Part shown: in pieces, positions 5,236-61,746 of the stretch
Layout of the letters: each line of letters starts with the position of its first letter
How positions within the stretch are numbered: the stretch's first letter is position 1
Origin: an uncultured Candidatus Cloacimonadota bacterium
GTDB lineage: Bacteria > Cloacimonadota > Cloacimonadia > Cloacimonadales > Cloacimonadaceae
DNA: 61,746 nt
Assembly: GCA_964482845.1 (NCBI GenBank)
Contig: CAYZZE010000001.1
Location: 1-61,746, forward strand
Direction: 5' to 3'
Program-made: the position numbers and the translations under genes
The notes under the pieces: generated by a model
The model's database searches: none
The model's input: only the letters and a program-made list of their open reading frames with translations
What the model was told of the DNA's origin: nothing

Positions 5236-8200
5236 ATGCGTTCAACAAACATCATCGTGCTGCCTGCTGTCATTGCAATCATGCTATTGACATTGATCAC
5301 GGGCAGCGCGCATGCCTTTATCGGTGATCAAGTTAGAACCCACTCGGTCACTCCCAACCAATTGATCTTCAAGACCTCCCGGGTCATTCAGCCAACCCGC
5401 AGCCGTACTGGACTGACCCAGTTTGATAGTTTCCTTGACCAATTGGGAGCCGATAATATCCGTCTCATTCGAGGGATGCATCTGGAGCAGTATTATCAGG
5501 TGGACCTGGTTCAAGAACCGGACTGGGTTGTCGTACGCAGCGGCGGATACAGATTTGAAGGCATCGAATACATCCAACCCATTGGCCTTAGCACCTTCCA
5601 CAGCATGACCCCCAACGACCCGCTTTTCCCATTGCAGCAATTGCATTTATCCTCTATACCCGAGGCATGGAACTATACTACCGGCAGCCCTTTGGTGATC
5701 GTGGGAGTAGTGGATTCGGGCATCCTGCGCGAGCATCCTGATATTACGGCAAACCTGTATACCAATCCCAACGAGACCCCGGATAATGGTATCGATGATG
5801 ACGGCAATGGCTATATTGACGATTGGTGCGGCTGGGACTTTGTGGATTCGCCGGAAATGGCGGATGTGGCTTTGGGCGACTTTATCGTACAGGACAATGA
5901 CGTCACGGACGAAAACTTCCACGGCACCCACGTCTCCGGAATCATCGGAGCGGCCGGAAACAACAATATCGGCATTAGCGGCGTGAACTGGAATGCAAGG
6001 ATAATGCCGCTTAGGGCAGGTTTTAAAACTACCCAGGGCGCTGGTTATCTCCAGGATGACGATGCTGCCGCCGCGATCATTTATGCTGCGGACAACGGAT
6101 GTCACGTGATCAACATGAGTTGGGGCGATCCCAATTACTCACCCATCATTGCAGACGCATGTGAATACGCTTACAACAAGGGAGTCGTCTTGGTCGGCTC
6201 AGCCGGAAACGACCCCGGTCCAAATCTCAGTTATCCTGCCAAGTTATCCACCGTGATCTCAGTCGGTGCGGTCAACCGCTATAAGCACTTGGCAGGTTTT
6301 TCCAGTTATGGGATCGATCTGGATCTGGTTGCGCCCGGAGAACAGATCTGGAGCGCCTACAAACTGGAACCGACGGAACTCTACAGCGAAATGTCAGGCA
6401 CTTCGATGTCCGCTCCTTATGTGACTGGCAGCGTAGCGCTTTTGAATGGACTAATGCCGGGACTGACGCCAGACGAGGTGAGGGCGCGACTTTTGACCTC
6501 GACTGATGATCTCGGAGCGCCTGGCTTTGACATTCACTTTGGCCATGGGCTTCTGAATACCAAAAAACTACTGGAAAATCTTGATCCTCCTATGGTTGCG
6601 ATGGATTATCCCTTCGATAACATGGGCATTTCCTCTGACTTTGATATACTGGGCACGGTTCGGTGTGCTGATTTCTTCCGCTATTCAGTGATGTACACCA
6701 ACAAAACCACTCCTTCCATCCTTGACTGGAAGGATGTGCAACGCCATTCAAACGAACCGACTTATTTCCACCAACCTGTCTCTAATGGACTTATCGCCCG
6801 ATTTAATGTCCCCGCTCACTTCAAGGACGGCGTCTATCTGCTCCGGATCCAATATGAAAATGTGAATGGCAAACGCTACAATTACTACCGTTCAGTTCAC
6901 TACAATACGACCAATCCCACCATGATCATCGAATCCGTGCAGGGTTCCCGCCGTTATGAAGGACAGAACCTGCGTTATTATGTCTCAGCCAAATTCAGCG
7001 AGCCCGTGCATGCGCGGCTCAAGGCGATTGCTGCCGACAATTCCGAATTTCTGGTTTACAGCGTTACCAGGGACAGCATTCAAGTATGGATGCTGCCGCC
7101 GGAGATGCCGCAAGGGCAGGTATCGGTGCAGATCGAAGCATACAACAACGCCAATCTCGAATACTCGTCACCCATCATTAATAACGTGATCAATATCCAG
7201 TATGAGATCGTATCTACTTATGGCTGGACTCACAATGTTATTGGCAGTCCCCGCGTCCCGCTAAACAAGATGTATGACTTTGACAATAACGGACTTATAG
7301 AGTATGTCTCAATGGATTTACCCGTCGCCGGTTATGGACAGGTCTATGTCTATGAACCCGCAACCGATGGACATATACTGAAGCATACATTCAATGATGC
7401 CTTCTGGCCTTTGGATCTGGGCAATACCAATGATCAGGGAAAAGAACTACTTATCCTCAAAGCCGATACTGCCAGCATCCTGGAGACGCCTGCGGGCGGC
7501 AGTTATCCTTCGCAGAATATCTGGAACACCACCGGTATTTCAGGTGGGATTTTTGCCAATTATACCGGCCCTGTAGCGGATGAGGTCTTATTGGTAAAGA
7601 ATCTTCCCGCCGAACGGGTGATCCAGGCTTTCACCCGGGCAGGAGGTACATTCACAGCCCGCAATACACTCCGAAACACGACACCCACCAATCTCCGCAA
7701 CACCTTTGTCCCATCGATCATTTGCCGTAATTTTGATAATGACGCTTTTCCTGATATCCTTGCTGCCGATACCGACGGAGACGTCATGGTCTTTGAGATC
7801 GTTAATCACAACAACCATTCCATGACTTGGACAAAGCGGCAGCCCATAGGCAATTTATATTACCTTACCGCAGGCGATTATACCGGAAATGGACGGCAGG
7901 AATTCTTCGTCGGTGGCTACTACCGCGACATTCTCAATCCCAACCTCAATTTCTGGTTTTTTGAGGGAATCCGCAGCACATCAAATAACGCCTACGTTTC
8001 AATGGGCTCCATCATGATCAATAACTACATGTCCCAAAACGCCGTCCATTCCTTTGATCTGGATAGCGATGGCAAGGACGAGATCATCCTGGCGCTGACG
8101 CCCAACCTTTACGTTCTCAAATACATCAACAACCAGTTTGTGCCGGTGTGGCATGGATCCAGTTCCAATACATACCAGATCGCCGCCTGGCGCGATGCCG

Positions 8201-9453
8201 CTCACCGGAGTCATTTTTTGACCAATTACAAGACGGAGACCGATTCGCTATATGCCACGGAATGGACTCAGATGGATGCCTACACGGCTCCGCCTACCCC
8301 GGCAAACCTGCTGGTCAAACCCTTGAACGAATATTCTGCCCGACTTACCTGGATCGGAAACAATTCTGACCACTACAATATCTACCGCAAGGATGAAGAT
8401 GGTAGTATCATTAGTTTTACCGGCATTACAAGCAACGCTTTTATCGATACCACCCTATCTGCCGGTAGGACCTATCAATATCGATTGACGGCAGTCAATT
8501 CCATGTATCAGCCACCGGAAAGCCAGCCAACGCTATGGCATAGCGTTATCCCCAATCCGCGTCCACACATCACCGAGATCACAATGATCAGCAGCAATGA
8601 AATGAGGATCCTTTTTGACCAGCAGATGGCATCCGCCAATCTCAATCCCGGATACTATCACGTAAGCCACGGCTTGGGAAATCCGCACTCGGTCAATGCC
8701 ACCATGATGCAATTTGGGATGCAACTCAGATTCCGCAACCAGTTTCCGGAGACGACCGAACCATTCGTTCTCACCACGCAAAATATCGTCGGCGCCACAG
8801 GTGTCGAACCGGAGGTCTGGCAGTATCAATTTTACTATGTCCAGGATTGGCTCCCACCGGAGGTAGTGGAAACCATCGTTAACGCCGACAAAAGGACGGT
8901 GGATATCGTCATGAGCGAGGATATCGCCGCCGGTAGCGCACTTGCCCTGTCTAATTACGTTTTCACCCCTCCGCACAATGATCCGGACAATCGCATCATG
9001 GCCATCAGTGTGCATGACAATATCATCCAGCTAAGATTGAGAAACGCCATCCGGTATTCCAACCAGTTATACTACGTCACCATCTCCAATGTGACCGATC
9101 TGGCGGGCAATGTGATTTCACGCCAAAACAATCTTGCCACTTTTGCCCTGCCACCCGTTACCAATCTCGATGCCGTGATCCTCTATCCCAATCCGGTGCG
9201 CAGTGCCGATAATGCCTGGATCGGTATTTTGAACCTCCCGCAGCATAAGAAGGGCAGCATCGCCATCTACAACGCCTCCGGCGATATTGTCTGGAAAAGT
9301 AATATCGCACCGATCACGCCAGTTACCCACAATCCCGTTTTCCGCTGGAACCTCAGAAATATGAATGATCGCAGGGTATCCTCCGGGATCTATTTTTATA
9401 TTCTGGAGATGGGCGGAGAGTATAAAAGAGGAAAGTTCGCGGTCATCAATTGA
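5236..9453 (+). CDS. Subtilisin-like S8 serine peptidase, 1405 aa, with FG-GAP-like repeats, an FN3-like domain and a T9SS-type C-terminal sorting domain
   Basis: Catalytic triad motifs VGVVDSGI (Asp), HGTHVSGIIGA (His) and SGTSMSAPYVTGS (Ser). FN3-like segment PPTPANLLVKPLNEYSARLTW...YQYRLTAVN. C-terminus LYPNPVRS...SSGIYFYILEMGGEYKRGKFAVIN. Confidence 0.88.
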   Translation: MRSTNIIVLPAVIAIMLLTLITGSAHAFIGDQVRTHSVTPNQLIFKTSRVIQPTRSRTGLTQFDSFLDQLGADNIRLIRGMHLEQYYQVDLVQEPDWVVVRSGGYRFEGIEYIQPIGLSTFHSMTPNDPLFPLQQLHLSSIPEAWNYTTGSPLVIVGVVDSGILREHPDITANLYTNPNETPDNGIDDDGNGYIDDWCGWDFVDSPEMADVALGDFIVQDNDVTDENFHGTHVSGIIGAAGNNNIGISGVNWNARIMPLRAGFKTTQGAGYLQDDDAAAAIIYAADNGCHVINMSWGDPNYSPIIADACEYAYNKGVVLVGSAGNDPGPNLSYPAKLSTVISVGAVNRYKHLAGFSSYGIDLDLVAPGEQIWSAYKLEPTELYSEMSGTSMSAPYVTGSVALLNGLMPGLTPDEVRARLLTSTDDLGAPGFDIHFGHGLLNTKKLLENLDPPMVAMDYPFDNMGISSDFDILGTVRCADFFRYSVMYTNKTTPSILDWKDVQRHSNEPTYFHQPVSNGLIARFNVPAHFKDGVYLLRIQYENVNGKRYNYYRSVHYNTTNPTMIIESVQGSRRYEGQNLRYYVSAKFSEPVHARLKAIAADNSEFLVYSVTRDSIQVWMLPPEMPQGQVSVQIEAYNNANLEYSSPIINNVINIQYEIVSTYGWTHNVIGSPRVPLNKMYDFDNNGLIEYVSMDLPVAGYGQVYVYEPATDGHILKHTFNDAFWPLDLGNTNDQGKELLILKADTASILETPAGGSYPSQNIWNTTGISGGIFANYTGPVADEVLLVKNLPAERVIQAFTRAGGTFTARNTLRNTTPTNLRNTFVPSIICRNFDNDAFPDILAADTDGDVMVFEIVNHNNHSMTWTKRQPIGNLYYLTAGDYTGNGRQEFFVGGYYRDILNPNLNFWFFEGIRSTSNNAYVSMGSIMINNYMSQNAVHSFDLDSDGKDEIILALTPNLYVLKYINNQFVPVWHGSSSNTYQIAAWRDAAHRSHFLTNYKTETDSLYATEWTQMDAYTAPPTPANLLVKPLNEYSARLTWIGNNSDHYNIYRKDEDGSIISFTGITSNAFIDTTLSAGRTYQYRLTAVNSMYQPPESQPTLWHSVIPNPRPHITEITMISSNEMRILFDQQMASANLNPGYYHVSHGLGNPHSVNATMMQFGMQLRFRNQFPETTEPFVLTTQNIVGATGVEPEVWQYQFYYVQDWLPPEVVETIVNADKRTVDIVMSEDIAAGSALALSNYVFTPPHNDPDNRIMAISVHDNIIQLRLRNAIRYSNQLYYVTISNVTDLAGNVISRQNNLATFALPPVTNLDAVILYPNPVRSADNAWIGILNLPQHKKGSIAIYNASGDIVWKSNIAPITPVTHNPVFRWNLRNMNDRRVSSGIYFYILEMGGEYKRGKFAVIN

Positions 9454-10322: not shown

Positions 10323-10475
10323 TGTATTCTCCTTCGTGACCGAACCAGCCGGTGCCCTTGCTCCAAGCCGTCATCTTCAACCGACGATTCTCCTGAGCAA
10401 GCCCCTTGATCCGCTCGGGCATGTGTTTTTTTACAGATATGATAGGCGGCAACGATCTCTTGGCAAGCTATTTGT

Positions 10476-10738
10476 CCTCCTTGCTTGATAACCTTAGTAT
10501 AACCTTACGACCGTAAGGTTATACTAAGGTTATGGAGCAGGAAGAACCCAGGCGGAAACACAGTCAGCTGGAATCTGGTCCTTCTCGAGACGGGTGAACA
10601 ATTCACAGCGATTGACATTACTGCTATATGCAAACCATCTGCCAGACATAATCCGATGTCATAAGGGGCTGCGCTGGAATGGAGAGACAGTATGTTATTT
10701 TCACGTTCCCGATATTTTGAGATTCCAGTATGTTAAAC
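10476..10738 (-). repeat. Composite intergenic repeat, copy 1 (inverted orientation, diverged)
   Basis: Hairpin core at 10488-10533 (ataaccttagtataaccttac gacc gtaaggttatactaaggttat) with one 11-nt unit per arm. The downstream 200 nt align by eye to the reverse complement of copy 2 (e.g. aaaccatctgccagacataatcc vs aaactatctgacaggcataatcc, and ctgcgctggaa shared). Confidence 0.8.
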
Positions 10739-15138: not shown

Positions 15139-15174
15139 ATAGGCAGTGATATCTGCAATTAGATTTCAAAGTGC

Positions 15175-15482
15175 GTTGCACATACGGGAATCACCATATT
15201 TTGAGACCGTGAAAAACAAAATCGTCGCTCCTTCCAGCGCAGTCAGTATTAGCTAAGGATTATGCCTGTCAGATAGTTTGGATACTCGTTGAGTCAACCG
15301 CTCCGAGTTGTTTAACGGTCTCAAGAAGGTTTAGATTCAAGCGGAATAGTGCTTTCTCCTGCATTCTCCCTGCTTCATAACCTTAGTATAACCTTACGGT
15401 CGTAAGGTTATACTAAGGTTATACTAAGGTTATCAAGCAAGGAGGATAGTTAAGTCAACTCTCTGATTTATTCAACGGTCTT
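15175..15482 (+). repeat. Composite intergenic repeat, copy 2 (reference copy): modules M1-M2-hairpin-M3
   Basis: M1 is gttgcacatacgggaatcacc... (15175-15260). M2 is ggattatgcctgtcagatagtttgg...ctcctgcattc (15258-15364). The hairpin spans 15365-15446 (left arm has one aaccttagtat unit, right arm has two atactaaggtt units, loop ggtc). M3 is tagttaagtcaactctctgatttattcaacggtc (15447-15482). It lies between convergent genes. Confidence 0.85.
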
Positions 15483-20212: not shown

Positions 20213-21880
20213 TCAATCGGGTGGGCTAAACCGGATCAGCGCAATGGTTCCTTTCTTGATACCGGAGAAGCGGAAAAGATTTCCCTGAATATCGACCTCT
20301 ACGCCGCTGGTTTCGGCAATCTGAAATTCGGAGGATACGGTAAGGCAGAAATGATCCAGTTCATCAGGGAAAAAGACGCTGAGTTCGTAATCGCTTTCTT
20401 CGATGGTCACTCTTTCCCGCTTTTTCCACCAATCGGCAAGTTCCATGCAGGTAGCCTTGTAGATGTTTTCGGAATTGAGCAGAGCCAGGATGTATTGATA
20501 CAATTTGCCACAATAATGGATCTCGGCATAATTGGCAAGCGTGAAATCTAGACACAGAACTCCATGAACCTTGCGCACGGCTTGGTAGATCTTTTTGAAC
20601 TGGACTTTGGCATCTTCGAGGGATACAATGCGATTGCGGGTCAGGCGGAGATAAATGTCGCGGAAGGAGAGAGGTATCTCATAATGGCTGGAGATGGTCC
20701 CTCCAAACCAAGGTTGATAAGGGATAGCGACGCCATTCTTGAATCCGGGCATGCTTTGATAACACAAACTATTGCTGTAAGCCGGTCTGACCTGCTGAAG
20801 GAGTTCGCGGATCTGGTCATGGATGCGGAAGTCAAACTGGCGGATGCCGATGCTTTGGGTTCCGATGTTGTGCGACAGGATCTGCTTGCGGGTAATGTAG
20901 TCCTCACGGTTTGGTTTATCGTTCGTTGCCAGCAGTCCGATCTCGCTTCCGGCGGCTTTGATCTTGCCGATATCTTCCTGCAGGTCTGTATCTTCCAGGG
21001 TGTAATCGATATCGGCATTTTCCTCGGCAGCAACAAAGAAAGTGGATCGGCTGTTAAATTGCTGTTCCAGATCAAGATACTCCACAAAGTTCCAATAAAC
21101 CTCGTAATTGGTAAAGAGGTATTTGAGTTTGCCGGCGATGGAGCGGAAGAGTTGCATTATCTTGAGAGTAAAAAGCATGATAAAATCATCCACCACCGAG
21201 AGCAATAAGGAATTGAAACTCCACTTTTGCAGGTCGTCCACGCTGTGGGTGAGGATGGCTGCCATGATCTGATGTTCGGGGTAAAGACATTTGCGGGCGA
21301 TGATCTGTTTTTTGGCTTTGGAGTGTTCCATGAGCATATTGTCGATCAACCATAAAAGATTGTGGACGATCGGGGTTTCGCGCCATTGGTAAAAGAGACG
21401 TGCTTCATCAGGAAAGCACTGGTATTGGTCCCGCTGAGGATCGATCTGCGATTCGAATTCGGATAGGTGGAAAAAGACATTGCCAGCAAGGTCAAAATTG
21501 ATCTTTCCGCCGTGGATCTTCTTTTCGGAATAATTTTCGGCAGGGTAGGTGAATTTGAGTTCCGAGATCACGGGCGTCAATGTGAGCAGTTTGGTTTCGC
21601 GAATACTGCGGCGGATCTTCTCTATGCTATAGCCCTTGGGGTCATACAAATTGGGATCTGCCTGGATAAAGACAGTGATGTAATGACGCGAGATCTGTTT
21701 TAGTTCCTCGGCAGTCGGTGCCAGCAGTCCGTAGATGAGCAGGATGTCCGATTCACGCAGTTTTTGGATATCATCTATGTACCTGTGGCTGTAGCCCAAA
21801 GTGTGGAAGATAAAATTGAAACTATATTTTATCTCCTTCTGATAGCGTTCGAGTTTGTAGTCCGTATATATTGAGATCAT
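20213..21880 (-). CDS. Hypothetical protein with a polysaccharide-deacetylase-like central region (degenerate NodB motifs)
   Basis: 555 aa. RSTFFVAAEE...AGSEIGLLAT resembles the NodB TFFV / GHEIG(S)H motifs but lacks the His residues. The N-terminal part may correspond to DUF7033 (from memory). Confidence 0.35.
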   Translation of the reverse strand: MISIYTDYKLERYQKEIKYSFNFIFHTLGYSHRYIDDIQKLRESDILLIYGLLAPTAEELKQISRHYITVFIQADPNLYDPKGYSIEKIRRSIRETKLLTLTPVISELKFTYPAENYSEKKIHGGKINFDLAGNVFFHLSEFESQIDPQRDQYQCFPDEARLFYQWRETPIVHNLLWLIDNMLMEHSKAKKQIIARKCLYPEHQIMAAILTHSVDDLQKWSFNSLLLSVVDDFIMLFTLKIMQLFRSIAGKLKYLFTNYEVYWNFVEYLDLEQQFNSRSTFFVAAEENADIDYTLEDTDLQEDIGKIKAAGSEIGLLATNDKPNREDYITRKQILSHNIGTQSIGIRQFDFRIHDQIRELLQQVRPAYSNSLCYQSMPGFKNGVAIPYQPWFGGTISSHYEIPLSFRDIYLRLTRNRIVSLEDAKVQFKKIYQAVRKVHGVLCLDFTLANYAEIHYCGKLYQYILALLNSENIYKATCMELADWWKKRERVTIEESDYELSVFFPDELDHFCLTVSSEFQIAETSGVEVDIQGNLFRFSGIKKGTIALIRFSPPD

Positions 21881-21959
21881 CGCTTAACATTCACCACTTT
21901 TTTTACTTTTTGTCCCCCATCAGTTAAACAATGAAGTGGTGTCAAGGAAAATCGGCAGC

Positions 21960-22189
21960 CCCTTGTTTGACTATAGTCCTCCTTGCTTGATAACCTTAGT
22001 ATAACCTTAGTATAACCTTACGACCGTAAGGTTATACTAAGGTTATGAAGCAGGGAGAATGCAGGAGAAAGCGCTATTCCGCTTGAATCTAAACCTTCTT
22101 AAGGCAGTTGCATGATTCAGAGCGGTTGACTCCATGGTCATATATACGCCTTCTGTCAGGCAAGACCCGGTGTCTTAACATTGCTGCCG
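21960..22189 (-). repeat. Composite intergenic repeat, copy 3 (inverted): M3-hairpin-M2 part
   Basis: Hairpin at 21977-22058 (two aaccttagtat units on the left, one on the right, loop gacc), which is the reverse complement of the copy 2 hairpin. The following gaatgcaggagaaagcgctattccgcttgaatctaaaccttctt is the reverse complement of the M2 3' part. Confidence 0.85.
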
Positions 22190-22432
22190 GATGTTAGGCG
22201 GTAACTTCCATCACCGTCCGGAACGCCGCCAACGATCAACCAGCAAGGGTATCCGGACTTTGGGAGGACTTTAGTCCGGGAGAAATCCCCTCTCGCCGGT
22301 CAGGCCTCATTCTTTTAATACGCTGGCATATGTCTCTCGTTCGGACAGAAGTCCTCTCAACGTCTAAAAACCCAGTAGGGTTGTATGTACTCTCACGATC
22401 CGAAACGGTGGTTGAAACCACCGCCTAACATC
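22190..22432. repeat. 243-bp segment bounded by a 12-bp perfect inverted repeat (gatgttaggcgg / ccgcctaacatc), nested in repeat copy 3; candidate MITE or structured RNA
   Basis: Termini at 22190-22201 and 22421-22432. Several internal hairpins (ggtggt-ttca-accacc, ccggact...agtccgg, ggac-ttct-gtcc on the minus strand). Only the 60-nt end (22376-22432) recurs, at 52580-52640. Confidence 0.45.
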
Positions 22433-22562
22433 TGATGGCGCTGGAAAACTTATTATAAAGACCGTTGAATAATCAGCAACACCGGATTTATCCGGCACCC
22501 AGCACGTTTGCCCAGATGTCATAAACAAATGTCATACAAGCATATAGATTTTACCATGCACC

Positions 22563-22700
22563 GACTGAAGTCAGTGCAACGACCGGCTGAAGCCAGTGCA
22601 ACGACCGGCTAAAGCCGGTGATACACCTATGTGCAACGGTCTTTTATATTGCGTTCTCTCGATCTTAATCTCTGGTGAGCCCATTATGTGCAATGGTCTC
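22563..22700 (-). repeat. M1-type repeat modules (two, inverted), including a 22-nt tandem duplication
   Basis: Tandem units agtgcaacgaccggctgaagcc (22573-22594) and agtgcaacgaccggctaaagcc (22595-22616), then ggtgatacacctatgtgcaacggtc. A second M1 runs to atgtgcaatggtctct (22686-22701). Their reverse complements match 61690-61746 and 52495-52560. Confidence 0.7.
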
Positions 22701-23334
22701 TAAAATACAAATTTACAGGATCATTCGTGATAAAAAAACCTGATAGCTGGCAAGAAAAAAGGCGGTTTGGGAGAGAATGCCCTTCTCTGGTGATTGACTC
22801 TTTGACAGAATTGGTTCGAGGAATATCCTGCAGTGCCGTATTATCAGAGGCATCGGAATCCTCCTTTACAAACTGCACCGGAGTGCTATGCGGCAGATGA
22901 CCATGGCTCCCTTGGATAATCTATCCTCAGTTCATCCAGCGACGTCCATATCCTGGTCTCGATCAAGAATTGGCAAAAATTCATTTGACAGAAACAGTAC
23001 TGCCGTCCCTTTGGACTGTTGTAGTAAATAGTGAAAGAGATGATTGAAAAGCATGATGATAGATACATACCCAAGGGAGCGATACCTCATCCTGGTCAGC
23101 ACGATTCTGCTATTCGGTAGAGTGATTATGACGATTGACAATCTGGTGACACCTGCACCAATGTAGATATTGACATTGCCATCACGATCATAGTACCGGG
23201 GTGGCAATATCCATCTCTGGATGCAGCGCTGGTTCGTTGTTACGCATAAGCGACGGGGCGAAGCTGTATCGTATAATGTTGATCACTATAATGGCGAAAT
23301 GGAAGCCAAATCAGCCAAGTGAGGAGGGTTTATC

Positions 23335-24522
23335 ATGGATAACAAAGCCAGATTTGATACTTTACTGATTCACGGAGGTCAGAAACCTGATACTCTGAAG
23401 GCGGTGAGTCCACCGATCTACCAAACATCCACATTTGCTTTTTGCAATGCGCAAGACGGAGCGGATTGCTTTGCCGGACAGAGCGATGGCTATATCTATA
23501 CCCGTTTGGGCAATCCCACGATCCGTCACCTCGAAAATGCGGTCGCTGCTCTTGAAGGCGGATTGGGCGGGATCGCCACTGCCAGTGGGATGGGAGCGGT
23601 AACCACAGTTTATATGTCCTACCTTGGAAACGGTAGTCATATCGTATCCACCGATGCCGTTTATGGAGCTTCCCGCACTGTCCTGGAGAAGTTGCTATCG
23701 AGGTTTGGGGTGGAAGCGACTTTCGTTGATACAAGCAAGATAGAACTGGTCGAACAAGCCATCCGTCCCAATACAAAGCTTCTGTTCATAGAAACCCCGG
23801 CAAATCCCACCATCTCCATTACCGACATCGCCGCGTGCGCCGTTATTGCCCGAAAATATGGGATCAAACTGGCAGTGGATAATACCTTCTGTTCGCCTTA
23901 CCTGCAAAGACCGCTGGAACTGGGTGCGGATATTGTCCTGCATTCCATTACCAAGTTTATCAATGGTCATGCTGATGTGGTCGGCGGCGTCATCGTGACT
24001 ATGACGGAAGAAGACCACAAGTTGATGTATGGTGTCATGACCAACATGGGTCCAAACATGGATCCGCATCAGGCGTATTTGGTTATCCGCGGCTTAAAGA
24101 CGTTATCCATCCGGATCGACCGGGCGCAGGCAAATGCCGTGAGGATCGCATCCTATCTGGAAACGCATCCCCAGGTTGCCTGGGTCAGATATCCAGGACT
24201 GCCCTCCCATCCGCAGTTTGATTTGGCAAAAAGGCAGCAGAAGGGACCGGGAGCGATGATCTCATTTGGACTCAAGGGTGGCCTTGAAGCGGGCAGGACA
24301 GTCATGGATAATGTCAAGGTTGCGATTCTTGCAGTTTCTCTCGGTGGCGTGGAAACGCTGATCCAGCATCCAGCATCCATGACTCATGCCAAGGTTGCCC
24401 AAGAGGCAAAACTCAGAGCCGGGATCACCGATGATCTGGTTCGGCTATCGGTAGGAATCGAGGATGTGGAAGATCTGATCGAGGATCTGGAACAGGCATT
24501 AGCGATGATTAAGCATAAGTGA
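23335..24522 (+). CDS. mgl: Methionine gamma-lyase / Cys-Met metabolism PLP-dependent enzyme
   Basis: 395 aa. FDTLLIHGG, PPIYQTSTF, and the PLP-lysine motif SITKFINGHADVVGG. Best fit is methionine gamma-lyase, but O-acetylhomoserine sulfhydrylase cannot be excluded. Confidence 0.8.
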   Translation: MDNKARFDTLLIHGGQKPDTLKAVSPPIYQTSTFAFCNAQDGADCFAGQSDGYIYTRLGNPTIRHLENAVAALEGGLGGIATASGMGAVTTVYMSYLGNGSHIVSTDAVYGASRTVLEKLLSRFGVEATFVDTSKIELVEQAIRPNTKLLFIETPANPTISITDIAACAVIARKYGIKLAVDNTFCSPYLQRPLELGADIVLHSITKFINGHADVVGGVIVTMTEEDHKLMYGVMTNMGPNMDPHQAYLVIRGLKTLSIRIDRAQANAVRIASYLETHPQVAWVRYPGLPSHPQFDLAKRQQKGPGAMISFGLKGGLEAGRTVMDNVKVAILAVSLGGVETLIQHPASMTHAKVAQEAKLRAGITDDLVRLSVGIEDVEDLIEDLEQALAMIKHK

Positions 24523-34662: not shown

Positions 34663-35122
34663 TCCACGAATTACACGCATTGGCACAAATTGTCATAGAG
34701 TGTTATGAATAGCCCGGAACTACTTTACAAAGAAGAGTGTTACAATATAATCGGTGCATGTATGACAGTGCATCGAGAAATGGGTAATGGTTTCCTTGAA
34801 TCAGTTTATCAAGAAGCCCTGGCAATCGAACTGGAAAATCGTAGGATACCCTATAAGAGGGAGAAAGTGATCAATGTATCGTACAGGGGCATTGATTTAA
34901 AGTCAACTTTCAAAGCTGACTTTGTTTGTTATGAGGAAGTAATTGTCGAAGTCAAAGCACTGAGTTTACTAAGCAATGATCATACTTCTCAAGTAATTAA
35001 CTATCTAAAAGCAACCGGATTAAGAGTCGGTTTGCTGGTCAACTTTGGCACATCAAGTTTACAACACCATCGCTATGTGCTCTAAACCTTTAGTAATCTG
35101 TGTAATTAGTGTAATTCGTGGA
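34663..35122 (+). mobile_element. GxxExxY cassette A: mini-gene boxed by inverted arms of gtgtaatt-type 9-nt units
   Basis: Perfect 14-bp inverted repeat tccacgaattacac (34663-34676) / gtgtaattcgtgga (35109-35122). The arms extend imperfectly to about 32 nt (34663-34694 and 35092-35122), with 9-nt phasing tagtaatct|gtgtaatta|gtgtaattc|gtgg. Mobility is not demonstrated. Confidence 0.45.
34705..35085 (+). CDS. GxxExxY protein (PD-(D/E)XK nuclease fold, PDDEXK_3-like)
   Basis: 126 aa. GFLESVY matches GxxExxY. ADFVCYEEVIVEVKA gives D...E.K. The C-terminus QVINYLKATGLRVGLLVNFG is typical of the family as I recall it (TIGR04256). Confidence 0.8.
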   Translation: MNSPELLYKEECYNIIGACMTVHREMGNGFLESVYQEALAIELENRRIPYKREKVINVSYRGIDLKSTFKADFVCYEEVIVEVKALSLLSNDHTSQVINYLKATGLRVGLLVNFGTSSLQHHRYVL

Positions 35123-43982: not shown

Positions 43983-44066
43983 TGGTTGTATCATGATTAC
44001 TTCACATCAGAATCCATCAAAATGATAAAGTAGCAAAAATCCTTATAAGTGACCAGTTTTCCTGCG

Positions 44067-44149
44067 TCCTCCCTGCTTGATAACCTTAGTATAACCTTAC
44101 GGTCGTAAGGTTATACTAAGGTTATACTAAGGTTATCAAGCAAGGAGGA
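44067..44149 (+). repeat. Stand-alone copy (4) of the 82-nt hairpin, inside a co-directional operon
   Basis: tcctccctgcttgat-aaccttagtat-aaccttac-ggtc-gtaaggtt-atactaaggtt-atactaaggtt-atcaagcaaggagga. The outer stem is fully complementary here (cttgat/atcaag). Only about 25 nt of M2-like sequence lie upstream, and there is no M1 or M3. Confidence 0.85.
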
Positions 44150-44189
44150 TAAGGGTAGGTAAAGGGAAAAAGGAACAAAACGAGATAGC

Positions 44190-49697: not shown

Positions 49698-50711
49698 ATG
49701 TTTAACAACAAGATTATAATGATCACCGGCGGCACCGGCTCTTTTGGCAATACCGTGCTCAATCGTTTTCTGGATACCGGAGTAAAAGAGATCCGGATAT
49801 TCAGCCGGGACGAGAAAAAACAGGATGATATGCGCAAAGATTACCGGAATGACAAGATCAAGTTCCATTTGGGTGACGTCCGTGATTATGACAGCGTGTT
49901 CAATGCCATGCAAGGGGTGGACTATGCGTTTCATGCCGCAGCCCTGAAGCAAGTGCCATCCTGTGAGTTCTTTCCGGTGCAGGCGGTCAAGACCAATATC
50001 CTCGGTGCCGAGAATGTGATCAGGGCTGCCATTGCCAATCAAATCAGCAAAGTAATCGTTCTTTCCACCGATAAGGCGGTCTATCCGATCAATGCCATGG
50101 GTATGTCCAAAGCGCTGATGGAAAAGGTAATGGTGGCTTATTCCCGGCAGCAGCCAGATAATGGGACTGTCCTCTGTGGGACGCGTTATGGCAACGTAAT
50201 GGCATCACGTGGTTCGGTCATACCGCTTTTTATCGAACAGATCAAGGCAGGTAAGCCCATTACTATCACCGATCCCGACATGACGAGGTATCTGATGTCG
50301 CTGGAAGAAGCGGTGGAATTGGTTGTGTATGCCTATCAGAATGGAGTGCAGGGTGACATCTTTGTCCAAAAATCGCCGGCATCCACGATCCAAGACCTGG
50401 CACAGGCACTTATCGAACTATTTCATGCCAATACTGAAATCCGCATCATTGGTACCCGGCATGGAGAAAAGAAACACGAGACGCTGATCAACCGGGAAGA
50501 AATGGCAAAGGCAGTTGACCTCCCGGGTTACTTTCGGATTCCCGCTGATACACGTGACCTGAACTATGACAAATACTTCAGCAATGGTGAAGCTAAGGTC
50601 ACTGAAATCGAGGAATACACATCAGAAAATACGTACCGCCTCAGCATCCCGGAGATTAAGGAGAAACTGCTATCTCTTCAGTATGTGAGAGACGAACTGG
50701 GTTCCAACTGA
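49698..50711 (+). CDS. fnlA: UDP-GlcNAc 4,6-dehydratase/5-epimerase (FnlA/CapE/WbjB)
   Basis: Near-collinear identity with the remembered S. aureus CapE sequence: ITGGTGSFGN, EIRIFSRDEKKQDDMR, HAAALKQVPSCEFFP, CGTRYGNVMASRGSVIPLFI, ITDPDMTRYLMSLEEAVELV, GTRHGEKKHETL. Confidence 0.93.
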   Translation: MFNNKIIMITGGTGSFGNTVLNRFLDTGVKEIRIFSRDEKKQDDMRKDYRNDKIKFHLGDVRDYDSVFNAMQGVDYAFHAAALKQVPSCEFFPVQAVKTNILGAENVIRAAIANQISKVIVLSTDKAVYPINAMGMSKALMEKVMVAYSRQQPDNGTVLCGTRYGNVMASRGSVIPLFIEQIKAGKPITITDPDMTRYLMSLEEAVELVVYAYQNGVQGDIFVQKSPASTIQDLAQALIELFHANTEIRIIGTRHGEKKHETLINREEMAKAVDLPGYFRIPADTRDLNYDKYFSNGEAKVTEIEEYTSENTYRLSIPEIKEKLLSLQYVRDELGSN

Positions 50712-50725: not shown

Positions 50726-51157
50726 CACCACCGAGGACACTGAGAACACCGAAAATGATTTTCGAAAAGGACTTGAGCGATAAGATAATTGGTTGTGCCA
50801 TTGAAGTTCATAAGCAACTTGGATCCGTTTACATGGAGAAACTTTACGAAAAAGCCATGCTGATAGAGCTTTCAGAAGCAGGACTCAAAACGAGAAACCA
50901 AGTTCCAATTCACGTGGTATTCAAGAATCATGTTATCGGGGACTACATACTTGATATTGTTGTCGAGGATAAAGTAATTCTTGAACTCAAAGCGTGTTCA
51001 AAAATAATCCCTGTGCATGAGGCTCAATTGATTCAATATCTACATACGTCAAAGTACAAAATAGGTTACATTATCAATTTTGGCAGTAACTATAAACTAG
51101 AGTTTGTTAGGAAAGTACTATGACGGTTTTCTCGGTGCTTTCGGTGTTCTCGGTGGT
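50726..51157 (+). mobile_element. GxxExxY cassette B: mini-gene boxed by inverted arms of caccgag-type 9-nt units
   Basis: The left arm at 50727-50754 reads accaccgag|gacactgag|aacaccgaa|a. The right arm at 51127-51157 has the reverse complement accaccgag|aacaccgaa|agcaccgag|aaaa. The left arm abuts the ATG, and the right arm ends 10 nt before the fnlB ATG. Mobility is not demonstrated. Confidence 0.45.
50755..51123 (+). CDS. GxxExxY-family protein (PD-(D/E)XK fold), variant first motif (VYMEKLY)
   Basis: 122 aa. LDIVVEDKVILELKA gives D...E.K. QLIQYLHTSKYKIGYIINFG tail. The Gly of GxxExxY is displaced by two residues. Confidence 0.8.
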   Translation: MIFEKDLSDKIIGCAIEVHKQLGSVYMEKLYEKAMLIELSEAGLKTRNQVPIHVVFKNHVIGDYILDIVVEDKVILELKACSKIIPVHEAQLIQYLHTSKYKIGYIINFGSNYKLEFVRKVL

Positions 51158-51166
51158 TAAAACAAC

Positions 51167-52402
51167 ATGAAAAAGAGAATTGGTATTACCGGACAGGCAG
51201 GATTTATCGGCACTCACCTGTACAACACCCTCGGCTTGTCCGGAGATCGTTTTGCAAGAATTTCCTTTGAAGACGGTTTCTTCTATTCGGAGGGATTACT
51301 GGATGATTTTGTTCGTAAGTGCGATGTGATCGTGCATCTGGCAGCCGTCAACCGTCACGCTGAGCCAGAAGTTCTCTACAAGACAAATATCGAATTGGTT
51401 CGCAAGCTGATAGCATCAATGGATAGGAATAAGGTTTCACCGTATGTCATATTGAGTTCTTCATTGCAAGAGGAAAGGGACAACCTCTATGGCAGGTCGA
51501 AAAGGGAAGGCAGAGAACTATTTAATCAGTGGGCGGATAGAACGGGTGCAAGTTTCAGCGGATTGATCATCCCCAATGTCTTCGGTCCCTTTGGGGTGCC
51601 GTATTACAATTCCGTGATATCGACCTTCTCTCACCAGATAGTGATTGGAGAAGAACCAAAAATAGAAGTGGATGCCGAACTGAAGTTGATCTATGTGGGT
51701 GATCTGGTGCAACGGATCATTTGTTTAATTGATAGTTACACCGATGTGACGGATAAAACGGATCAATACAGATTTATGACCGAAAGGACAACCACCGGGG
51801 ACACCGAAAACACCGAAAGTAATTCTCAATTCTCAATTATCAATTATCAATTGAACAAGCCGGAACGGCTTATCCAGGTTGAACATCAAGCGGTTTGTAA
51901 GGTGTCGGATTTATTGGCTAAGTTACTTGGATTTCATGGCGAGTATGTAGAAATGGGTGTTTTTCCTGATCTCAGAGATTATTTTGACGTATGTCTGTTC
52001 AATACTTTCCGTTCCTATCTGCCAGTGTCATTTTTCCCCCGACCCTTCAAAGTGAATAGCGATGATCGCGGCGTATTTGTGGAGGTGATGAAATACAGAT
52101 CCGGTGGGCAATCGTCCTATTCGACGACCAAACCGGGCATTACGAGGGGCAACCACTTCCATATCCGAAAAGTTGAACGATTTGCCGTGATCAAGGGCAA
52201 GGCATCCATCAAACTGAGAAAATTGGGGACAGATCAGATCATCGACTATCAGATCGACGGATCACAACCAGCGTATGTGGATATACCAGTGTGGTTTACA
52301 CACAACATCACGAACATGGGTGATGAAGAACTGGTGACACTATTTTGGATAAATGAGTTCTATGAACCACGTGACCCCGATACTTACTATGAAGAAATTT
52401 GA
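51167..52402 (+). CDS. fnlB: Bifunctional SDR + cupin enzyme of L-FucNAc synthesis (FnlB/CapF/WbjC) with an extra linker of about 37 aa
   Basis: N-terminal ITGQAGFIGTHL, VHLAAVNR, YGRSKREGE. C-terminal cupin DDRGVFVEVMK...KPGITRGNHFH...VDIPVWFTHNITNMGDEELVTLFW parallels S. aureus CapF. 411 aa against about 369 aa. Confidence 0.88.
   Translation: MKKRIGITGQAGFIGTHLYNTLGLSGDRFARISFEDGFFYSEGLLDDFVRKCDVIVHLAAVNRHAEPEVLYKTNIELVRKLIASMDRNKVSPYVILSSSLQEERDNLYGRSKREGRELFNQWADRTGASFSGLIIPNVFGPFGVPYYNSVISTFSHQIVIGEEPKIEVDAELKLIYVGDLVQRIICLIDSYTDVTDKTDQYRFMTERTTTGDTENTESNSQFSIINYQLNKPERLIQVEHQAVCKVSDLLAKLLGFHGEYVEMGVFPDLRDYFDVCLFNTFRSYLPVSFFPRPFKVNSDDRGVFVEVMKYRSGGQSSYSTTKPGITRGNHFHIRKVERFAVIKGKASIKLRKLGTDQIIDYQIDGSQPAYVDIPVWFTHNITNMGDEELVTLFWINEFYEPRDPDTYYEEI
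51791..51848 (+). repeat. Solo B-type arm plus heptamer tandem array, in frame inside fnlB/capF
   Basis: accaccggg|gacaccgaa|aacaccgaa|ag (51791-51819) is a paralog of the cassette B left arm. It is followed by aattctc aattctc aattatc aattatc (51821-51848). The tract translates as TTGDTENTESNSQFSIINYQL. Confidence 0.75.
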
Positions 52403-53015
52403 TTACCACCGAGAACACCGAGTTCACCGTTGCTATCTTCAGGATGCAATGTTGAAGACAAAAAGGTGTGTTATGCGACCCAAAGTTATCAAATAGAGAC
52501 CATTGCACATGTTGGGGTCACCGGATATTGAGATTATGAAATCGTGAGAAAGCAATATCATCTGCCTCCCTGCGTCATTGGATGTTAGGCGGTGGTTTCA
52601 ACCACCGTTTCGGATCGTGAGAGTACATACAACCCTACTGCGGATCTTCTGGGGATTATGCCTGTCAGATAGTTTGGCTACTCGTTGAGTCAACCGCTCT
52701 GAGTTATCTAACGGTCTCAAGAAGGTTTGGATTTAAGCGGAATAGTGCTTTCTCCTGCATTCTCCCTGCTTCATAACCTTAGTATAACCTTACGGTCGTA
52801 AGGTTATACTAAGGTTATACTAAGGTTATCAAGCAGGGAGGATAGCTCTAAGTCAACTCTCTGAGTTGTTCAACGGTCTTAATTAGTTTGTCAGATAAGG
52901 ATTTGTAAGTTTAACAGTTAGCTATCAGTTATGAAATCGAACGCCGACATAGCAATCCGCTACCAGTCGTATTTATGTTTGATGTTTCTCGGAACTTTCG
53001 GTGTTCTTGGTGGTA
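52403..53015 (+). repeat. B-type inverted arm pair with no GxxExxY gene between the arms
   Basis: The left arm ttaccaccgag|aacaccgag|ttcaccg (52403-52429) starts directly after the fnlB stop. The right arm at 52985-53015 has the reverse complement taccaccaag|aacaccgaa|agttccgag|aaa. The interior is occupied by composite repeat copy 5. Confidence 0.7.
52495..52883 (+). repeat. Composite intergenic repeat, copy 5 (M1, 60-nt end of the nested element, M2, hairpin, M3)
   Basis: M1 is agagaccattgcacatgttggggtcaccgg... (52495-52578). gatgttaggcggtggtttcaaccacc...ccctactg spans 52580-52640. M2 spans 52653-52760. The hairpin spans 52761-52842. M3 spans 52843-52883. Confidence 0.85.
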
Positions 53016-53035: not shown

Positions 53036-54151
53036 ATGTTAAAAGTAATGACTGTTGTCGGTACGAGACCCGAGATCATCCGGCTCTCAAGAGTGATGCC
53101 ACTTTTGGATCGGTACACCCGCCATATCCTGGTGCATACGGGACAGAACTACGATTACGAACTCAATCAGATATTCTTTGAAGATCTGGAATTACGTCAG
53201 CCTGACTATGTCTTGAACGTAAATACAACATCCTTGGGGCATGTTTTGGGGGAGACACTTATCAAGATCGAAGATGTCGTGGATAAAGAAAAACCGGATG
53301 CAATGCTGATCTTGGGCGATACCAATGCCAGCATCGCCGCTATCATGGCAAAACGCCGGCACATCCCGATCTATCACATGGAAGCCGGTAACCGCAGTTT
53401 TGACGAAAATGTGCCGGAGGAGATCAATCGCCGAATGATTGATCATATCGCCGATTTTAACCTCGTCTATACGGAAAACTCCCGGCGACATCTAATATCT
53501 GAGGGCTTACCGCACCGGCGCATTTACCTGACCGGTTCTCCGATGAATGAGGTCATTTCCTATTATCGACACAAGATTGAAAGATCCAACGTCTTGGAGG
53601 CATTGCAACTTAAGACAAAACAGTTCTTTCTGGTATCTGTACATCGGGAAGAGAATGTTGACAATCCGGAAAACCTGCATCAGATCATTGATGTCCTGAA
53701 CCAGTTGATACAGAAGTATAACCTTCCGGTGATAGTCAGCACACACCCAAGAACCCGAAAGCGACTTGAGTCACTCAATTCGATCAACCCTGACTCGCAA
53801 ATCAAATTCCTCAAGCCCTTCGGGTTCTGTGACTATAACTTCCTGCAGATGAATGCTCTATGTGTGATATCGGATAGTGGGACGATCAGTGAGGAGAGTT
53901 CAATCCTCCGTTTCCCAGCGATCACCATCAGAAATTCCATGGAGCGTCCGGAAGCAATTGATGCCGGGACTATCATTCTCAGCGGTTTCAACACCGATAT
54001 AGTGCTGGATTCTGTTGCTTTAGCAATGGATGAGCAAGCCAGGTGTGATAGAATCTGCCCCGAATATCAGGTTAGCAATACTTCCCACAGGGTTCTGAAA
54101 CTGATCCTTGGAACTGCGAAACTCCACAAGCAGTGGAGCGGGCTTAATTAA
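53036..54151 (+). CDS. fnlC: UDP-N-acetylglucosamine (UDP-L-talosamine-type) 2-epimerase, non-hydrolysing (FnlC/CapG/WbjD)
   Basis: MLKVMTVVGTRPEIIRLS, GDTNASIAA, HMEAGNRSFDENVPEEINRRMIDHI, SDSGTISEE. Third gene of the FnlABC set. Confidence 0.88.
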   Translation: MLKVMTVVGTRPEIIRLSRVMPLLDRYTRHILVHTGQNYDYELNQIFFEDLELRQPDYVLNVNTTSLGHVLGETLIKIEDVVDKEKPDAMLILGDTNASIAAIMAKRRHIPIYHMEAGNRSFDENVPEEINRRMIDHIADFNLVYTENSRRHLISEGLPHRRIYLTGSPMNEVISYYRHKIERSNVLEALQLKTKQFFLVSVHREENVDNPENLHQIIDVLNQLIQKYNLPVIVSTHPRTRKRLESLNSINPDSQIKFLKPFGFCDYNFLQMNALCVISDSGTISEESSILRFPAITIRNSMERPEAIDAGTIILSGFNTDIVLDSVALAMDEQARCDRICPEYQVSNTSHRVLKLILGTAKLHKQWSGLN

Positions 54152-59554: not shown

Positions 59555-60072
59555 GTTCTCGCAGATTGTCGCAGATGATTTATAGAACGCAGATAGCGCA
59601 GATTCCATAAGGATGAGAGGTTAAAGTGACTGAGAATGAGATTGGCTATAAGATAAGAGGTGCCTGCTTTTCGGTTTATAATACACTGGGACCGGGATTA
59701 CTTGAAAGCACTTATGAGAAAGCACTTTTTTTGGAACTTATTTCAGGATGCAATGCCAAGACACAAGTCGCATTGAACCTTACCTATAAAGAAAAGCAAA
59801 TTGATAGTGCATATCGAATAGATTTGTTGGTAGAAGATAAAGTGATTGTTGAGATCAAATCCATCGAGTCACTAATGCCAATCCACCATAAACAATTGAT
59901 CACTTATTTAAGGCTATCGGGACTGAAACTTGGTTATCTGGTTAACTTCAATACAACCGAACTTGATAAGAACATACATAGATATGTTAACCAACTCTAA
60001 TCCTAGTAGTTACTCCATTCATTCCTTGCGCCGATCTGCGTCTTTTCAAGATCTGCGTAAATCTGCGAGAAC
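59555..60072 (+). mobile_element. GxxExxY cassette C: mini-gene boxed by inverted arms of about 48 nt built from cgcagat units
   Basis: The left arm spans 59555-59604 (gttctcgcagattgtcgcagatgatttatagaacgcagatagcgcagatt, four cgcagat units). The right arm at 60026-60072 has the reverse complement gttctcgcagatttacgcagatcttgaaaagacgcagatcggcgcaa. The left arm starts 1 nt after the upstream stop. Mobility is not demonstrated. Confidence 0.45.
59626..60000 (+). CDS. GxxExxY protein (PD-(D/E)XK fold)
   Basis: 124 aa. GTG start with SD gagagg. GLLESTY matches GxxExxY. IDLLVEDKVIVEIKS gives D...E.K. QLITYLRLSGLKLGYLVNFN tail. Confidence 0.8.
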   Translation: MTENEIGYKIRGACFSVYNTLGPGLLESTYEKALFLELISGCNAKTQVALNLTYKEKQIDSAYRIDLLVEDKVIVEIKSIESLMPIHHKQLITYLRLSGLKLGYLVNFNTTELDKNIHRYVNQL

Positions 60073-61173: not shown

Positions 61174-61290
61174 TTCATGAATAAAACTCCTCTACATCGT
61201 CTCATCTTCATCGTCTTGTTATCATTACCCCTTCTGGCATCGGGCATTTTTGACCGGAAGACCCTCTCCATCGAATACTCTACCAAGCGC

Positions 61291-61600
61291 GTTGCACATA
61301 CGGGAATCACCAAATATCGAGAACGTGAAAAAACAATAGCGTCTTTCCTTCCAGCGCAGTCAGTAATAACTAAGGATTATGCCTGTCAGATAATTTGGAT
61401 ACTCGTTGAATCCCCCGCTCTGAGTTATTCAACGGTCTCAAGAAGGTTAGATTCAAGCGGAATAGTGCTCTCTCCTGAACGCTCCCTGCTTCATAACCTT
61501 AGTATAACCTTACGGTCGTAAGGTTATACTAAGGTTATACTAAGGTTATCAAGCAAGGAGGATAGTTGTAAGTCAACTCTCTGAATTAGTCGACGACCGT
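61291..61600 (+). repeat. Composite intergenic repeat, copy 6 (M1-M2-hairpin-M3)
   Basis: gttgcacatacgggaatcaccaaatatcgagaacgtgaaaaaac... is collinear with copy 2. The hairpin spans 61481-61562. M3 is tagttgtaagtcaactctctgaattagtcgacg. Confidence 0.85.
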
Positions 61601-61689: not shown

Positions 61690-61746
61690 ACCAAGACCGT
61701 TGCACATAGGGGTATCACCGGCTTCAGCCGGTCGTTGCACTGACTT
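61690..61746 (+). repeat. Partial M1-type module running off the window end
   Basis: accgttgcacataggggtatcaccggcttcagccggtcgttgcactgactt is the reverse complement of 22566-22641 minus one 22-nt unit. Confidence 0.7.

Follow-up and report, generated by a model that had tools for sequence, protein, structure and literature searches.

Why should an operon keep the ends of a nuclease-gene cassette at a site that holds no nuclease gene? The question is posed by a 61,746-nt stretch of DNA from an uncultured Candidatus Cloacimonadota bacterium, referred to here as the window. Its fnl operon has the order fnlA-like gene, 122-aa GxxExxY gene (50755-51123), fnlB-like gene, a 633-nt gap and fnlC-like gene, with the fnlC ATG at 53036. 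The GxxExxY gene is part of a small cassette (cassette B) bounded by inverted arms of tandem 9-nt units, and a second pair of arms of this B type occupies 52403-53015, in the gap between fnlB and fnlC. A preliminary description of this DNA offered two readings: either the pair is a cassette whose cargo was lost or exchanged, or the arms are the functional unit and the gene is optional. Our analysis supports this pair of readings: the arms at 52403-53015 truly belong to the element family of GxxExxY cassette B, as a gene-less member, related contigs carry an intact gene within the same arms (L135 and L142), and several others carry gene-less pairs. The overall explanation that we favor, and consider probable, is that the pair belongs to a cassette family defined by its arms, free in the content of its loop and resembling, within mRNA, the intervening sequences (IVSs) of 23S rRNA.

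The two arms have the architecture of the family, namely inverted arrays of tandem CAC(C/T)GAG-type 9-nt units with ACCACC/GGTGGT at the outer ends (Table 1). They are 94% complementary over 18 nt, and over 30 nt the right arm shares 90% identity with its counterpart in cassette B, which bears out the near identity first described. Each arm also keeps the signature of its side, GAG-AA-CACCGAG on the left and, in reverse complement, AAG-AA-CACCGAA-AG on the right, the latter as in the right arms of full cassettes; the third unit is degenerate in both (TTCACCG and AGTTCCGAG). A search with the motif ACCACCGAGAACACCGAR, allowing up to three mismatches, returned eight matches, all within 50727-53014, against a shuffle expectation of 0.06, and none of 100 shuffles reached eight. 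The five B-type arms listed in the preliminary description (50727, 51127, 51791, 52403 and 52985) were found by motif search. As stated there, the left arm lies directly after the fnlB stop (52403-52429), and it is at the identical place in the related contigs L006, L134/L132, L135 and L142. The right arm is likewise where it had been placed (52985-53015), although it ends 20 nt, not 21 nt, 5' of the fnlC ATG, just upstream of the ribosome-binding site (RBS) AAAGGAA. The pair sits between a stop codon and the RBS of the next gene, with the same boundaries in L135, L134 and L142.

No GxxExxY gene or recognizable remnant of one was detected inside the pair by tblastn, hidden Markov model (HMM) searches or nucleotide alignment, and the pair is therefore filed as a gene-less derivative rather than a full cassette. 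The open reading frames (ORFs) that overlap the interval are only 40-66 aa long and match no Pfam family, in agreement with the original remark that no credible ORF is present, and a six-frame Pfam scan of the interval at E <= 10 found no family. Comparison of the three window GxxExxY proteins with the interval by tblastn, which had been proposed as a way of detecting a decayed gene, turned up no remnant (best E = 0.23). Nucleotide local alignment of the interior with six full cassettes, controlled by shuffles, stayed at shuffle level save for one 14-nt exact identity, TTCAGGATGCAATG, at 52438-52451 and 59742-59755. The second copy lies inside the cassette-C ORF (at 'SGCN'), with blastn E = 0.046 within the window and z = 5.3 relative to shuffles; the identity may have survived from a C-like gene or may be due to chance. 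At gathering thresholds, Rfam models matched nothing in the whole window, rRNA included; a permissive Rfam scan of the interval gave only hairpin-shaped noise from microRNA models, and a promoter/terminator scan did no better than shuffles. Apart from a composite repeat considered below, the interior is ~165 nt long and 88% identical between the window and L006. Because this value is within the range for third codon positions of the neighboring genes (78-88%), the interior looks like neutral filler that drifts at the silent-site rate. A conserved function for the interior was considered and rejected: gene-less interiors from seven sites are unalignable, and those of the window and L006 diverge no differently from silent sites.

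The composite repeat was correctly noticed in the interior by the preliminary description, and its placement there (52495-52883) is refined here to 52497-52883, with TAG flanks (52494-52496 and 52884-52886). It is like a MITE (miniature inverted-repeat transposable element) in having 9-nt terminal inverted repeats (TIRs) and a TAG duplication. With boundaries marked by slashes, the window reads ...ATCAAATAG/AGACCATTG...CAACGGTCTTAAT/TAG/TTTG, and L006 reads ...ATCAATAG/TTTG, with a single TAG and no insert. Because L006 has an empty site with one TAG, the composite repeat is taken to be a later insertion, which would have entered the filler after the split from the L006 lineage. This history bears on the possibility that the arms are chance matches, or merely the outer ends of the composite repeat that they do enclose in the window. 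We assign this a negligible probability, given the excess of motif matches over shuffles, the presence in L006 of the left arm and interior with no repeat, the lack of B-type arms near the other copies of the repeat (~15169-15460 and 61285-61576), and the relatives in which the arm pair surrounds a gene or other fillers. L006 by itself rules out that the arms are the ends of the composite repeat.

The central hairpin of the composite repeat (52759-52843) is made up of inverted arrays of tandem 11-nt units (TAAGGTTATAC x 2.8), a design principle that it shares with the cassette arms. The hairpin module also occurs alone at 10468-10571, 21970-22073 and 44060-44163, and among 151 loci it is found in the window and L006 only; the composite repeat has no match among viral contigs. 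The copy inside the arm pair (copy 5) contains an additional ~60 nt (52575-52634), which are related to a small hairpin repeat at 22190-22432. Around the latter, 1.4 kb (21880-23335) is rich in repeats and has no ORF of at least 100 aa. It includes a 22-nt tandem repeat (ACCGGCTGAAGCCAGTGCAACG x 2.8; 22560-22620) and a GTTGCAC...ACCGGCTTCAGCCGGT motif that recurs at the end of the window (61690-61746) and resembles the start of the composite repeat, GCGTTGCACATACGGG.

The states of the same junctions in relatives place the gene-less pair in context. In a genome scan, FnlB groups the window with Cloacimonadota. The closest relative is L006, whose FnlB is 86% identical to that of the window. L001 and L002 are Logan contigs of the same strain from other runs and are identical to the window over the parts covered. 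Both cover cassette B with the neighboring portion of fnlB; L001 additionally takes in the remainder of fnlB, the left arm and the first part of the MITE-like repeat. At the fnlB/fnlC junction, gene-less B-type pairs are found in the window (with the MITE-like repeat) and in L134/L132 (~100-nt interior); L006 has a gene-less B-type element of which the left arm is seen, the contig breaking inside another hairpin repeat with the right arm out of view. L148 and L149 have gene-less pairs of D type (CACGGAT) at this junction. The preliminary description had suggested looking here for a GxxExxY gene in relatives, and one exists: full B-type cassettes in L135 and L142 encode intact nucleases 78% and 79% identical to window nuclease B, respectively, and L138 combines arms of C type (CGCAGAT) with 190 nt of filler and a truncated gene, about half of GxxExxY. 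The arms in L135 and L142 are at the window's positions, the former reading TGA ttt ACCACCGAGAACACCGAGGACACCGAA ... TTCGGTGCTTTCGGTGTTCTCGGTGGTG caataaaggaacaaaATG. In L003 and L007 there is no insert, and the fnlB stop is ~15 nt from the fnlC ATG. The pair is thus kept as a pair in relatives, despite the absence of a gene remnant in the window; the converse, two arms that relatives do not conserve together, had been named at the outset as evidence against the element.

The fnlA/fnlB junction is equally varied. Full B-type cassettes are present in the window, L134/L132, L141 and L145 (in the last two the contig ends and the fnlB/fnlC junction is out of view), a full cassette of B' type (CACTGAG) in L138, full D-type cassettes in L135 (140 aa) and L148 (143 aa), and a full C-type cassette in L149. 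L142 has a gene-less B-type pair with a 72-nt interior, which makes it the mirror image of the window: gene-less at fnlA/fnlB, full B cassette at fnlB/fnlC. L003 and L007 again have no insert, only a 75-nt spacer. In L006 (5779-6000), a decayed C-terminal GxxExxY fragment (...QLFNYLNATNLEIGFVFNFGPSPE...) is all that is seen where the window has an intact cassette B. Homologues of the cassette B nuclease with 70-81% identity are common and are sited in fnl operons. The cassettes are all co-oriented with the flanking genes, as seen for the three in the window and those in L132, L135 (two with GxxExxY genes and two with another cargo, described below), L138, L141, L142 (two), L145, L148 and L149. 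Because these states are interspersed on the FnlA tree, they point to repeated gain, loss or exchange. In L138 (6880-7230), the 3' half of the GxxExxY gene is bracketed by a 62-nt duplication of the C-type right arm together with the initial 14 nt of fnlC. This arrangement looks like the trace of a recombination event in which part of a cassette was brought in along with flanking host sequence. The half-gene is closest to window nuclease C (59% identical, compared with 35-47% for others).

Which part of the element does selection keep? Across genomes, gene-less pairs included, the first 18 nt of the arms are 0.89 (left) and 0.93 (right) identical, whereas third codon positions of the enclosed B-clade nuclease genes from the same genomes are 0.42 identical. 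These genes have nonsynonymous divergence (dN) of 0.08-0.26 and saturated synonymous divergence (dS), and gene-less interiors from different lineages are unalignable. Left arms follow the consensus GAG-RA-CACCGAG-RA-CACCGAA and right arms, in reverse complement, GAG-AA-CACCGAA-AG-CACCGAR; the gene-less pair of the window conforms to both. Because arm identity greatly exceeds that of gene silent sites and interiors, we conclude that the arms are under selection at the level of sequence with or without a gene. They appear, from these comparisons, to be the selected and defining part of the element, under purifying selection regardless of what they enclose. The second reading of the preliminary description, in which the arms are the unit, is favored by this conservation and by the predominance of gene-less hairpins among the metagenome matches listed.

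These measurements also weigh on the simplest alternative, plain decay, in which a B-type GxxExxY gene formerly occupied the site and has been deleted or overwritten, the arms being a functionless relic too recent to have eroded. The same slot does hold intact genes in L135 and L142 and half a gene in L138, the left arm of L006 is eroding (ACAAACGAG), the third units of the window arms are degenerate, and the 14-nt identity to the cassette-C ORF could be a vestige. Yet no remnant is detected by any of the three search methods, gene-less pairs keep ~90% arm identity in lineages in which the silent sites of the gene are saturated, no sequence is shared among gene-less interiors, and gene-less hairpins are the majority form among the metagenome matches listed. 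We therefore regard decay as unlikely.

Table 1. Features of the fnl locus and of the gene-less arm pair in the window.
Feature	Position	Strand	Details
fnlA-like gene	49698-50711		
Full cassette B, between fnlA and fnlB	50727-51160	+	Left arm 50727-50755; GxxExxY PD-(D/E)XK nuclease gene 50755-51123; right arm 51127-51160
fnlB-like gene	51167-52402	+	411 aa; stop TGA 52400-52402 borders the left arm of the gene-less pair
In-frame insert in the FnlB interdomain linker	51734-51862	+	~38-43 codons; arm units in direct orientation
Left arm, B-type	52403-52429	+	ttACCACCGAG AACACCGAG TTCACCG; three 9-nt units; begins 2 nt past the fnlB stop
Interior, left part	52430-52496	.	No ORF, no family match; conserved only with L006
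MITE-like composite repeat	52497-52883	+	387 nt; 9-nt TIRs AGACCATTG and CAACGGTCT (8/9 matching)
Interior, right part (filler)	52887-52984	.	
Right arm, B-type	52985-53015	-	Reverse complement TACCACCAAG AACACCGAA AGTTCCGAG AAA
fnlC-like UDP-GlcNAc 2-epimerase gene	53036-54151	+	RBS just outside the right arm

We propose that the family consists of small cassettes that would lie in the interval from one operon gene's stop codon to the RBS of the next, co-oriented with the operon. Each of their inverted arms would comprise two or three 9-nt units in tandem, every unit made up of a conserved heptamer and a 2-nt spacer, and the loop would be free to hold a PD-(D/E)XK GxxExxY gene, a 23S_rRNA_IVP gene or filler only. 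In the fnlA-B-C transcript, by analogy with rRNA IVSs, the arms may fold into an interrupted stem of ~23-27 bp, which would bring the fnlB stop and the fnlC RBS together and loop out the insert, and which might be a substrate for RNase III. Formation of the stem would make the insertion tolerable to the operon, and the cargo would be dispensable. In predicted RNA folds, an arm-arm stem closes the element with the MITE-like repeat (z = -7.6) and without it (z = -4.4), as well as cassette B (z = -5.0). Such a stem would set the fnlB stop and fnlC RBS side by side, as they are in insert-free relatives. The element would then behave like an rRNA intervening sequence placed in mRNA; we infer both its RNA-level processing and its mode of mobility from this likeness.

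The 23S rRNA IVSs of Coxiella, Leptospira and Salmonella are the closest known analogue. In Coxiella, the terminal inverted repeats close the IVS as a 28-bp stem that has one mismatch and is bulged once, its 5' arm contains tandem GACAGAT heptamers whose number varies among strains, RNase III cuts in mid-stem, and the S23p ORF in the loop is decaying (PMC4990558). The present elements are likewise inserts closed by terminal inverted repeats, with stems of ~25-28 bp that include a mismatch or bulge, and in the predicted folds of the window element the stem that closes the insert is at least 20 bp, as in an IVS. Tandem heptamers in the arm are a further likeness (GACAGAT in Coxiella; CGCAGAT, CACCGAG, ACGGAT and AGTTACA here), as are the variable number of repeat units and the small optional ORF in the loop, including one of the S23p/IVP kind: the IVS protein family itself (PF05635) is found in identical cassettes near fnlC in L135. 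ORF-less forms of the IVS exist in Salmonella. The differences are that the present element lies between protein genes of an mRNA operon instead of in helix 9, 25 or 45 of 23S rRNA, that its usual cargo is a PD-(D/E)XK GxxExxY nuclease, that its cutting by RNase III is a prediction drawn from the analogy, and that related arm units are also translated, as direct arrays inside a gene.

Several observations weigh against this proposal. First, partner arms show no covariation in 62 distinct metagenome hairpins. The N position and 2-nt spacers match in 0.43 of cases in partner arms and 0.41 in non-partner arms of these hairpins, and the sense strand has no excess of G.U pairs in fnl cassettes (21 versus 24). 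Because there is no partner-specific matching, it is the heptamer array that is conserved, and complementarity follows from the motif; a conserved heptamer sequence is no less compatible with a sequence-specific protein than with a plain RNA helix. Second, unpaired direct arrays of arm units lie in frame in the FnlB linker, and the stem model gives no account of them. Third, comparison of insert-free junctions (L003 and L007) with occupied ones reveals no target-site duplication at the arms, nor was any other transposition footprint seen there. Fourth, the RNase III step is taken solely by analogy. Finally, most relatives are metagenome contigs, and the slot states may also reflect recombination of the whole fnl locus. 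The lack of covariation, the left/right asymmetry and the correlation of arm type with nuclease subtype fit a sequence-specific protein at least as well as the stem, and these three observations are why we keep a homing-type explanation alongside.

In a homing-endonuclease cycle, the gene-less pair would be an unoccupied or vacated landing site. The B-type GxxExxY nuclease would recognize heptamer-arm DNA, perhaps as a hairpin or cruciform, and cut it, and repair from an occupied copy would move the gene among pairs of the same type. One nuclease clade (69-87% identity) indeed always lies within CAC(C/T)GAG arms, in either of two slots across genomes, and the genes in the fnlB/fnlC slot are no farther from those in the fnlA/fnlB slot than the latter are from one another. 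C-type arms accompany C-like nucleases, as in the L138 remnant. The arm type of the gene-less pair equals that of the full cassette in the other slot in four of the five genomes with one slot full and one empty (the window, L132/L134, L142 and L148, with L149 the exception). Purifying selection on the nuclease itself is strong (dN/dS of 0.03-0.08 where measurable), and the nuclease model has a generic Cas4/lambda-exonuclease-like PD-(D/E)XK core (predicted local distance difference test score, 96); against solved structures and defence and phage libraries, only weak Cas4-like or generic PD-(D/E)XK matches were obtained. In contrast, cassettes with non-nuclease 23S_rRNA_IVP genes share the arm architecture, a nuclease merely 40-46% identical to the B clade also lies among CACCGAG arms (L051), arms of ~27 nt are very short as repair homology, and arm-only hairpins abound in loci with no nuclease gene in view. 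The family is listed as one of unknown function (PMC3424549), and the searched literature assigns it none. Homing is a rather doubtful explanation on balance, with an appreciable chance of being right.

Comparison with free-standing homing endonuclease genes is similarly divided. The likenesses are a small nuclease gene, under purifying selection, that is present, truncated or absent at one precise intergenic site; the differences are that the gene-less allele retains conserved arms in place of a clean target, that an insert-free allele also exists (L003 and L007), and that non-nuclease cargo occurs in the same architecture.

The preliminary description also proposed that the five B-type arms, which lie within 2.3 kb, could support inversion or deletion. 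If fnlB or its neighbors were inverted or deleted in this way, the arms would act as a phase-variation-like switch on the polysaccharide locus. The geometry exists, with inverted and direct pairs both present, and nothing else was found in favor of the idea. Gene order is the same in two independent samples of one strain (L001 and L002), fnlA, fnlB and fnlC are collinear in all relatives, and the repeats are only 18-30 nt long and imperfect. No invertase or recombinase was seen beside the arms, in a survey that included no search aimed at these enzymes. A recombination switch is accordingly very improbable.

Other mobile or repetitive elements share some features with the arm pair. Like MITEs and small repeats such as ERIC/RU-1, Correia and Rickettsia palindromic elements, the gene-less pairs are short, bounded by terminal inverted repeats, multicopy and present or absent among relatives, and they may sit in operons with units readable in frame; in-frame cases of small repeats are among the subjects treated, at least in part, in reviews by Delihas (PMC2229807, PMC2759123). 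Unlike MITEs, the arms lack a target-site duplication, their ends are heptamer arrays at 9-nt spacing rather than a unique TIR, and the interior is unconserved between copies. A gene-bearing partner with the same ends does exist (cassette B, L135 and L142), and its product is a minimal 122-aa PD-(D/E)XK nuclease that is not known to act as a transposase. Repetitive extragenic palindromes and bacterial interspersed mosaic elements (REP/BIME), which are associated with RAYT transposases, are also abundant intergenic hairpins, at times in tandem arrays (as in L111, L051 and L092 here). The arm of the present elements, by contrast, is a tandem heptamer array rather than a single palindrome with a GTAG-type head, and the hairpins can enclose genes; no RAYT gene was seen, although no search was aimed at RAYT. 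Integron attC cassettes resemble the elements in having small promoter-less ORFs, co-oriented with the host transcription unit, and imperfect inverted repeats. Here, however, the repeats are on both sides of the ORF instead of in one 3' attC, the termini are ACCACC...GGTGGT and not the attC core GTTRRRY, and the cassettes lie one by one at scattered places in a biosynthetic operon, not in an array beside an integrase.

More broadly, the arms extend well beyond the fnl operon. An exact-pattern scan of metagenome contigs with ACCACCGAGRACACYGAR found at least 120 loci, ranging in G+C content from 0.33 to 0.76. Among the matches listed in a fuzzy rescan there were 300 arm matches and 65 convergent pairs, mostly with 18-130 nt between arms, and only 5 loci among these listed matches had a GxxExxY ORF. 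Gene-less hairpins are thus the common form of the CACNGAG arm type among the matches listed, and the pair in the window is an ordinary gene-less family member. The heptamer CAC-N-GAG and the 9-nt spacing are more than 90% conserved in the 62 distinct hairpins, and some hairpins form tandem arrays (L111, with a 116-nt period, L051, L092 and L015). Other arm types have other cargos. CACGGAT arms in L135 and L148 enclose a different GxxExxY subtype, and L135 has two 23S_rRNA_IVP genes (PF05635; Avd-like four-helix-bundle proteins) downstream of fnlC, between polysaccharide genes (6550-7030 and 8020-8505), each between inverted arrays of AGTTACA units. That these genes are enclosed in arms of the same build shows that the architecture is not bound to the nuclease. 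Literature on GxxExxY, PDDEXK_3/PF13366, the IVS protein and Cloacimonas repeats yielded no account of these cassettes. A family of IVS-like, heptamer-armed cassettes in mRNA operons, with GxxExxY or IVP cargo and abundant gene-less forms, does not appear to have been described in that literature.

Within the window, GxxExxY genes (PF13366/TIGR04256) begin at 34705, 50755 and 59626, with E values of 1e-37 to 1e-43 across Pfam and NCBIfam; the nuclease of cassette B matches PF13366 at 1.6e-39 and TIGR04256 at 2.6e-37. The arm units are GAATTACAC in cassette A and CGCAGAT in cassette C. At 50752-50757, the start codon of nuclease B directly adjoins the last arm unit (CACCGAAAATG) and no Shine-Dalgarno sequence is present; cassette starts in L141 and L142 are similar. 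The start would be buried at the inner end of the arm stem, which suggests that the cargo is translated at a very low level or only when the stem opens. Among the flanking genes, FnlC passes the NCBIfam wecB cut-off; the names of FnlA and FnlB rest on family matches that are strong yet below NCBIfam equivalog cut-offs. Neither FnlB nor FnlC of the window has an exact-protein database record.

Arm units also occur within fnlB. The insert in the interdomain linker of FnlB contains, in order, ACGGAT units, a B-type arm (51791-51817) and TCTCAA/TATCAA units (51821-51852). It is missing from the 372-aa FnlB of L003 and L007, other relatives have FnlB proteins of up to 434 aa, and the array is hypervariable in many Cloacimonadota FnlB proteins (L132, L134, L135, L148, L149 and proteins P0003-P0058). 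In translation, ACGGAT units give TDxTD, CACCGAG units TENTE or TTEEHR, GCAGAT units FPADNAD and TCTCAA units NSQFSILNSQ. Several left-type arms also stand in tandem upstream of a single cassette, three of B type in L145 (3815-3995) and C-type followed by B'-type units in L138 (4890-4985), so the multiplication of arm units in direct arrays is not confined to coding regions.

These results have several implications. Arm-derived units account for odd low-complexity peptides in annotated proteins (TENTENTE, FPADNAD, TDLTDRTD and NSQFSILNSQ), and repeats like these coincide with points at which contigs break in Cloacimonadota assemblies. Tentatively, and with somewhat less than an even chance of being right, all heptamer-arm elements may form one widespread, undescribed class of selfish cassettes, of which 23S rRNA IVSs would be the rRNA-resident members. 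The active module would be the arms, whether a trans-acting factor recognizes their sequence, they are processed as RNA, or both; alternative cargos would be GxxExxY nucleases and Avd-like IVPs, and gene-less pairs would be the non-autonomous majority; the class would have colonized junctions between stop codons and RBSs and, as direct arrays, protein linkers. GxxExxY (TIGR04256/PF13366) is a very large family without known function, and to our knowledge the origin and purpose of 23S rRNA intervening sequences have been open questions since about 1990. The fnl locus bears on both. Together with its relatives, it offers, at a single defined junction, a natural series of states (full, truncated, gene-less and empty), a series in which the arms, rather than the gene, appear to be what selection keeps, and the same architecture carries the IVS protein family.

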